A stretch of 64,000 bases of DNA, from positions 44,206,001 through 44,270,000 of the forward strand of contig OZ024750.1 in the NCBI GenBank assembly GCA_964016885.1, read 5' to 3'. This DNA comes from Eledone cirrhosa. Taxonomy: Eukaryota. Numbering within the stretch: the first letter of the stretch is position 1; every line of letters starts with the position of its first letter. Shown here one piece after another: positions 458 through 13,045 of the stretch. The notes below the pieces were generated by a model that made no database searches, was not told the DNA's origin, and saw only the letters and a program-made list of their open reading frames with translations. The position numbers were made by a program, and so were the translations under genes.

Positions 458-494
<37 letters not shown>

Positions 495-532
495 ATATTA
501 ATAAATGGAAACTATATTTATAAAACCATAAT

Positions 533-598
533 TATTTTATTATATATATTTCAAGGGCAACAAAGACAAATTATGGTGCGCTCTCATCAGATAAAATA
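533..598 (-). ncRNA. Type I minimal hammerhead ribozyme motif (family B)
   Basis: Minus strand reads TATTTTAT CTGATGA GAGCGCACCA-loop-TTGTTGCCCTT GAAA TATATA TA ATAAAATA. Stem I is TATTTTAT/ATAAAATA. Confidence 0.75.
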
Positions 599-716
599 CA
601 GATTTGTTTTATAAATAAATATTGACATACCCGGAAAAAAGATAACCTTAACGGTTGAAATTCCCTGGATAGTCTTTTTTCCGGGTATGTCAATATTTAT
701 TTATAAAACAAATCTG

Positions 717-782
717 TATTTTATCTGATGAAAGCGCACCATCATTTGCCTTGGTGGCCCTTGAAATATACATAAAAAAATA
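717..782 (+). ncRNA. Type I minimal hammerhead ribozyme motif (family B)
   Basis: TATTTTAT CTGATGA AAGCGCACCA-loop-TGGTGGCCCTT GAAA TATACA TA AAAAAATA. Confidence 0.75.
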
Positions 783-913
783 ATTATGGTTTTATAAATA
801 TAGTTTCCATTTATTAATATATAGAATATTTACTCCACTAATCAGTTGAGTGCTTTATATCAGTTATAAAAATGTTTAACCTTATTGAATCCCAACAAAT
901 TAAATATAACCTC

Positions 914-969
<56 letters not shown>

Positions 970-12252: not shown

Positions 12253-12303
<51 letters not shown>

Positions 12304-12307
<4 letters not shown>

Positions 12308-12597
12308 AAAGTTCTATTTAAATTGTTGGAATACAACAAGCAAATATTTTTATAACTGATATAAAGCACTCGACAAGTATTTGGAGTAGATATACTATAT
12401 TAACAAATGGAAACTATATTTATAAAACCATATTTATTTCATTATACATATTTCATTATACATATTTCAAGGATACCAAGTTAAATTATGGTATGCCTTC
12501 ATCAGACAAAATACAATATATACCAGTTTTATAAATAAACATACCCTTGACGTACCCTTTCAAAATGCAACCGTTACTTTTGGAAGACACCGGGATA

Positions 12598-12599
<2 letters not shown>
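12304..12599 (-). mobile_element. Family B (subfamily B2) complete uninverted ~295-nt unit between (TA)n tracts
   Basis: Minus strand runs ACTATCC...HHR...TCGAGTGCTT...TTTTGCA with (TA)n on both sides. Confidence 0.8.
12449..12513 (-). ncRNA. Type I minimal hammerhead ribozyme motif (family B2)
   Basis: TATTTTGT CTGATGA AGGCATACCA-loop-TGGTATCCTT GAAA TATGTA TA ATGAAATA. Stem II sequence differs from B1 but still pairs. Confidence 0.78.
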
Positions 12600-12644
<45 letters not shown>

Positions 12645-13045
12645 TACATATATATACATATATATATATACATCTTATATATTCGATATATATATATACA
12701 TAGATATAGATATAAATAGGTAGATAGAGACAGATAGACAGATAGATAGATAGATAGATAACTGTTTTTTTTTTTACATTTATTGTTCGAAGATAGATGT
12801 ATAGGTAGGTAGCTATGCTGCTGCTGTTTGACCACCGAAAATGTTGTGTACTCTGTGTGAGAAAGAAGGTGGGGAGGAAGATACCAAATTACCAATTCCC
12901 TGTGAAAGTTAACACAGATTGGTTATCTATTGAAATATATATATTTTTAAGGAACGATCGACTTTCCTCAAATCGGACCGAGGGAACAATGTTTCCGTTG
13001 GTCTTTCCAATTGCTAATACTATCTATCGGTTGCAACTCCAGGTA

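Follow-up and report, generated by a model that had tools for sequence, protein, structure and literature searches.

The focal unit and its relatives in the window

The window analysed here, a stretch of 64,000 nucleotides from Eledone cirrhosa, is microsatellite-rich animal DNA taken from a 3.0-Gb assembly. The unit in question lies on its minus strand between two tracts of (TA)n, and it is read below as a solo pLTR of a Penelope-like element (PLE). The features needed for the argument are the following.

12304..12599, minus strand: unit read as a solo pLTR of a Hydra-clade PLE, with a putative promoter region, a hammerhead and both 3' end sites
12593..12599, minus strand: ACTATCC, nt 1-7 of the unit, Inr-like, at the peak of 5' ends, putative transcription start
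12568..12572, minus strand: DPE-like GGTTG, +28..+32
12449..12513, minus strand: type I hammerhead with an 8-bp stem I, core at 12505-12499, long stem II and short palindromic stem III
12304..12390, minus strand: optional tail of ~83 nt between the recurrent 3' ends (nt ~213 and 296), which are the putative RT start sites
12253..12304, no strand: (TA)n target tract on the 3' side of the unit
12599..12718, no strand: (TA)n-rich tract on the 5' side of the unit
483..917, no strand: two-arm inverted insertion, with a +1-to-213 arm on minus (~483-673) and a 5'-truncated tail arm on plus (674-917)
29649..29942, no strand: two-arm inverted insertion, with a +1-to-213 arm on minus (to 29842) and a tail arm on plus (29843-29942)
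39015..39262, no strand: two-arm inverted insertion, with a tail arm on minus (39015-39085) and a +1-to-213 arm on plus (from 39086)
60952..61112, plus strand: arm of family L, a related young PLE family, beginning 20 nt upstream of ACTATCC

An earlier note on this DNA had located ACTATCC at 667-673, 12593-12599 and 29836-29842 on the minus strand and at 39086-39092 on the plus strand, and these coordinates were verified, together with the observation that the family homology begins at ACTATCC in all four copies, upstream of which lies either a TA tract or an inverted arm. The unit at 12304-12599 runs uninverted to TGCA between its two TA tracts, as had been described, and carries two small private duplications; TGCA is, however, not the 3' end of the family sequence, which goes on into a 5'UTR and an ORF. 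The other three copies each form one arm of an inverted two-arm insertion: the arm that starts with ACTATCC extends to nt ~213, and its partner bears the tail to nt 296. The heptamer alone is not above chance in the window (7 matches against 10.2 expected); the informative part is its position relative to the hammerhead. When the whole unit was folded, its stability was no better than that of shuffled sequence (z -0.02). Elsewhere in the window (43600-43760, minus strand) a family B-like arm, truncated at its 5' end, adjoins a repeat of another kind, which is found again near 39915 and 39983.

The hammerhead ribozyme

The type I hammerhead is real as judged from its core boxes and three covarying stems, and its cleavage activity is predicted. 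Among eight window sequences 94.7% of the cells are paired and six pairs are changed on both sides, values well above those of slid controls; stem II of the focal unit contains a C-pyrimidine mismatch. Stem III is still palindromic in family L (308 motifs, pre-selected for stem I pairing), and the predicted dimer (-26.0 kcal/mol) is more stable than two monomers (-10.6 kcal/mol for the monomer). Rfam returned no hammerhead match for the unit alone at E up to 10, and the results for the whole window were dominated by microsatellite-driven miRNA matches among the 150 of 325 matches listed.

The predicted cut falls between 12457 and 12456, that is, after nt 143 and in the middle of the unit, and hammerhead cleavage as the origin of the ACTATCC 5' end is thereby ruled out. 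Only about 3 of the 96 copies in the position sample described below end within +128..+137, which is the background rate; as ends are not enriched at the predicted cut, linear cleaved RNA is not a main template. Another hammerhead-like motif, of more compact form (core, 4-bp stem II, GAAAC), is seen at 58552 and 45189 on the minus strand and at 58023 on the plus strand and probably comes from another PLE clade.

The parent element and its protein

The earlier note had proposed the involvement of a PLE, which is borne out, and had called for a search for an autonomous PLE sharing the 3' tail: the unit corresponds to the pLTR of a protein-coding PLE, of which copies with intact 742-aa ORFs (L184 and L185) were found. 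Already among the first 30 genomic matches about 10 run upstream of ACTATCC with a common sequence and one runs downstream into the ORF. The locus L031 displays the complete layout, beginning with (TA)n, an inverted arm, a piece of 3'UTR, a pLTR, ~50 nt and a frameshifted ORF, and continuing with ~1.95 kb of 3'UTR, a second pLTR and (TA)n; the element can thus be described as 3'UTR, pLTR, ~50 nt, a single 742-aa ORF, ~2 kb of 3'UTR and pLTR. A protein search gave 136 scored copies of the ORF with identities of 89-100%. Between the focal unit and the ORF-linked pLTR of L233, 271 of the 277 aligned bases agree (97.8%), and ORF-linked pLTRs are present in two further subfamilies (L138 and L106). 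The family is abundant, with 39,560 exact genome matches of a 28-mer downstream of the ribozyme.

The ORF was not named by Pfam or PDB sequence searches, Pfam giving no RT match for the query itself and matching RVT_1 in 2 of 61 relatives; the relatives are 31-48% identical and mostly unnamed, and YRDD is present in 61 of 61 aligned proteins. The predicted structure (mean pLDDT 87.6), for which the top Foldseek match was TERT (E 4.6e-9), points to a single ORF with a telomerase-like RT. The N-terminal part carries RWR at 37 and DKT at 118, and the C-terminal part a CxCx5C linker at 601-609, VVY at 620, YVG at 635, CDLC at 699 and CRH at 726, motifs which indicate a GIY-YIG-type endonuclease with the CxCx5C linker, CxxC and CxH.

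These features are shared with the Hydra clade of C-terminal EN+ PLEs, for which the motif definition was taken from PMC8557442 (Craig et al. 2021). There, RWK-like, DKT and CxCx5C motifs are described, with CxxC and CxH around a conserved E and N, and also a single ORF, a hammerhead, a (TA)n target, an inverted 5' arm and a tail at one end; the parent element likewise has a hammerhead in its pLTRs, an inverted 5' arm, a tail that is optional and (TA)n as its target, and the published Hydra proteins (supplementary file 1 of PMC8557442) show by eye the same blocks as the present ORF. The present element measures ~4.5 kb (~2 kb of it 3'UTR) against <3 kb in the clade as described in PMC8557442, its tail ~83 nt against 30-40 nt, its pLTR arms number at least 39,560, and its hammerhead does not have the same sequence as in the six new Hydra families of that paper, which were the ones compared. 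The motifs and the by-eye match suggest that the parent is a Hydra-clade PLE, and the focal unit is, on the evidence of these alignments, the pLTR/5'UTR of this autonomous element and not a separate SINE or retrozyme. A different Hydra-like family is represented by the ORF at L180:2048-3034, which is 26-43% identical to pieces of L031 and by eye nearer to the Hydra-1 type in supplementary file 1 of PMC8557442.

3' ends and two-arm insertions

Insertions of the element sit in (TA)n, and both 3' end sites (213 and 296) fall on a short TATA of the element itself. The count of two-arm insertions covered those with terminal arms and no long TA tract between them. These are 64 of 92 pairs, the others being 6 with a TA tract inside and 22 in which an arm is ORF-linked; in 59 of the 64, one 213 end is combined with one 296 end. 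Some tiny insertions (L223, L255, L259 and L260) end in the ATG region (~+330) and adjoin (TA)n, which may point to a third, less used 3' end site there. An abundant short palindromic repeat, found at 43088-43187 of the window and at many other loci, often lies beside PLE-targeted (TA)n tracts.

The 5' boundary is preferred and leaky

For the 5' ends, the first 100 of the 39,560 matches of the 28-mer were taken as a position sample, which was reduced to 96 by merging identical 60-nt contexts, and ends were scored by leftward alignment to 24 long references drawn from the same sample. This anchored alignment replaced an all-versus-all extension that was confounded by TA tracts and inverted arms, and nine of its rows were adjusted by eye, among them L047, finally read as extending upstream. 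In 26 of the 96 copies the start lies at -2..+12, in 32 it lies inside the unit, and 38 run upstream into 3'UTR. The density of ends is 1.9 per nt at -2..+12, 0.26 inside and ~0.08 just upstream, so the earlier argument that random truncation does not suffice to explain the boundary stands. The 5' end is, on the other hand, not fixed as had been claimed. At least a third of the copies extend past ACTATCC, and the segment serves as a pLTR in an abundant element that is autonomous, which is an outcome that the earlier note had named as refuting its model. In the focal subfamily (467 matches, the first 30 taken) 10 of 30 extend upstream and the full heptamer is kept in 7 of the other 20; in the subfamily of the copies at 667 and 39086 (1,374 matches, the first 30 taken) the figures are 10 of 30 and 4 of 20. 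A peak of 5' ends is present in the position sample and, with 20 of 30 copies apiece, in subfamilies A and F. The 5' boundary is preferred, not fixed; it is strong, yet smeared and leaky.

Promoter-like motifs and the families M and L

The long references carry C at -1 in 22 of 24 cases, and 21 of the 24 have RGWYV (DPE consensus as given in PMC11361659) at +27 or +28, with spacers that diverge between copies; as these references were picked on the ACT..CC motif and are homologous, the counts are not independent. An internal promoter with Inr and DPE has been described for Penelope (PMC2377424), and PMC3846280 gives an Inr-like TCACT for rotifer pLTRs. The Inr-like +1 and the DPE-like motif at +27/+28 together suggest a transcription start at the boundary, and the recurring start is likely that of the transposon's own internal promoter. 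The ends smear over +1..+12, and many junctions have TA or palindrome microhomology, which can bias the apparent ends. The proposal that an RNA with a defined 5' end gets copied is probably right in so far as the start can be read from DNA ends and motifs. A 3' splice site or spliced leader, an idea prompted by a pyrimidine tract and CAG at the boundary in one subfamily, was rejected, since most subfamilies are without AG and short copies are without a common added 5' sequence.

Family M, a divergent family in which a different RGWYV (DPE-like) word stands at +28 together with the same Inr-like motif, gave a comparable picture: among the best 30 of 54 matches to a query from +20, with end classes assigned by eye, ~19 stop at ~-6..+6, 9 extend and 2 start inside. 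It is a further related hammerhead PLE family with window copies at 42820-43010 (plus), 51780-52080 (plus) and 51400-51700 (minus), of which the copy near 42896 begins at the Inr-like motif and the other two extend upstream.

Family L runs against a simple Inr-DPE rule. It had been said to start at ACTATCC (60972), but its boundary lies 20 nt upstream: the window copy begins at -20, and of 32 arms (the top-scoring loci for a query beginning at the heptamer) none ends at the heptamer and 12 end at -22..-16, clustered ~20 nt upstream of it. ACTATCC is kept in this family, but reading by eye found no RGWYV at +28 from either position. Family L (60820-61112 of the window; L262-L291) has the same tail and two-arm layout as family B and is very young, 42 of 43 among the matches listed being identical over 139 nt. 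An endonuclease-like sequence is found ~900 nt upstream of it in several loci. A short open frame lies at 61290-61495 on the plus strand, and its end resembles what we take to be the C-terminus of a restriction-like-endonuclease LINE.

Asymmetry of the ends and a proposed mechanism

An unexpected difference is seen in pLTRs that are linked to the 5'UTR. A 21-mer located between nt 296 and the ATG occurs 61 times in the genome, and every occurrence was examined. Of the 5'UTR/ORF-linked pLTRs 30 reach +12, and 2 of these 30 stop at -9..+12, compared with 40 of 60 terminal pLTRs that stop at the boundary (Fisher p 2.5e-8), some of the 5'UTR-linked loci being duplicates and not independent (L233/L234). 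Three more 5'UTR-linked copies end at -10 to -15, and a stop window extended to -20 gives 5 of 30. The position sample yields the same direction, with 26 of 64 against 2 of 30 (p 6e-4). The asymmetry implies that the boundary depends on the template and not on sequence alone, because a stall intrinsic to the sequence would affect both classes of pLTR. A literature search with limited coverage of subscription papers found no published report of such an asymmetry.

We consider it fairly probable that the unit is a solo pLTR of an abundant autonomous Hydra-clade PLE, with ACTATCC as the likely start of its internal promoter and with copying from two kinds of template. The protein of the element would nick both strands of (TA)n, as suggested by the counts and by PAc, the Poseidon element of Anolis, which has been reported to prime internally at two sites and on each of the two strands (PMC11167929). 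Reverse transcription would be primed internally at 213 and 296, probably aided by a few TA-UA base pairs. On an RNA starting at +1, priming in the 5' pLTR would lead to run-off after 200-300 nt, and the product would be a solo or fold-back pLTR ending at +1..+12. Most of the long copies with an ORF would be made on RNA of more than unit length, either circles cut and ligated by the hammerhead or read-through multimers; since such RNA has no end at +1, long copies would rarely stop there.

Circles and read-through multimers fit the present data equally. Circles from dimeric hammerhead cleavage were proposed for PLEs in 2014 (PMC4209133). The circle step is favoured by L219, where a junction is repeated twice and lands on the predicted cut site, which is suggestive at this one locus. 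Against the priming and circle steps count the in vitro results on PAc, in which priming took place without target homology and the hammerhead was not needed (PMC11167929). A stricter version, in which capped mRNA is primed only in the 5' pLTR and gives solo pLTRs only, every long copy deriving from a hammerhead-cut ligated circle, is tentative and in our judgement rather doubtful.

L219 (G000:C1:377085892) is one of four mini-tandem derivatives of 184-285 nt, the others being L237, L244 and L294. They include both 3' end sites, 5'UTR and ATG, with no intact hammerhead, and the repeats of L219 look like the result of rolling-circle or repeated template-jump copying. Two of the mini-tandem junctions were considered as possible non-autonomous families and rejected as one-offs (3 matches at 2 loci and 2 matches at 1 locus).

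Alternative explanations

The solo pLTRs could form a self-propagating SINE-like unit, transcribed from their own promoter and copied again in trans as lineages of their own. A solo copy does contain the putative promoter and both 3' end sites, short copies far outnumber those linked to the 5'UTR (467 matches of one subfamily's 5' word against 61 of the 5'UTR word), pLTRs suffice in cis in rotifers according to PMC3846280, and non-autonomous Chlamys elements exist. However, on a tree of 65 pLTR bodies (five rows skipped, a short alignment and most branches unresolved) the short copies are intermingled with the long ones, with 18 label changes against 20.4 when shuffled, a value as low being reached in 87 of 500 shuffles; short copies share small indel variants with long copies, and upstream-extending copies occur in each of the four sampled groups. 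Such a unit is improbable, and the discrete non-autonomous SINE or retrozyme family of the earlier note, with no clade of its own, no tandem junction for the tail variant searched and near-identity to an ORF-linked pLTR, is not upheld.

There is also only a slim chance that the boundary marks a hotspot at the level of DNA or RT (TA microhomology, self-priming on the ATCC-GGAT palindrome or an RT stall) instead of an RNA 5' end. Many junctions are indeed fold-backs centred on the motif, or (TA)n followed by TCC, and the boundary of family L is likewise on a palindrome, CATATG. The same sequence is nevertheless passed by 28 of the 30 5'UTR-linked copies, and several subfamilies without the palindrome keep both the boundary and the +28 motif.

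A non-LTR retrozyme, that is, a circular RNA of ~300 nt derived from tandem hammerhead repeats, agrees with the unit in size, type I hammerhead, palindromic stem III and kinship to PLE pLTRs (PMC7229834; bioRxiv 10.64898/2026.07.22.740005), but it is largely refuted here and very improbable. The same sources define retrozymes by tandem units, and the focal unit is neither tandem nor bounded by the cut site, which lies mid-unit, and is nearly identical to the pLTR of an autonomous element. Tandem multimers, for which the earlier note had suggested a search, gave 0 genome matches of the junction from tail end to ACTATCC for the one tail variant used. Among 307 anchors only 9 have a same-strand neighbour at <600 nt, none of them a clean hammerhead-bearing array, and a circle would have no fixed 5' end.

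That solo pLTRs are what remains when the two pLTRs of a full-length copy recombine, as PMC3846280 proposes for some in rotifers, is disfavoured and highly improbable. The 5' pLTRs of long copies carry upstream 3'UTR in 28 of 30 cases, so that recombination would leave no ends at +1, and many of the short copies belong as arms to inverted insertions that have one 213 and one 296 end.

Relation to known systems and significance

The pLTRs, hammerheads, tails, internal promoters and solo pLTRs have all been published previously, and this PLE family may already stand in Repbase entries or bioRxiv supplements; the accessible portion of PMC13282606 mentions Penelope-like elements at order level only. 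As in PAc (PMC11167929), two putative internal RT start sites bound the tail and both target strands would be primed; as in Penelope of Drosophila virilis (PMC2377424), the pLTR would hold an internal promoter with Inr and DPE, which here is a reading of motifs. In contrast to both, which belong to a different clade, the end sites precede the ATG and coincide with short TATA microhomologies.

Short, SINE-like units with a hammerhead, present in tens of thousands, would be side products of an autonomous PLE and could be misclassified in annotation. The asymmetry between 5'UTR-linked and terminal pLTRs makes the template RNA of PLEs and the purpose of their hammerhead open to experiment, and intact ORFs together with a young sister family offer a workable system. 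If the stricter version of the two-template reading is true, it would explain the partial tandems of PLEs and the retention of the ribozyme, and L219 would be the footprint of rolling-circle copying.
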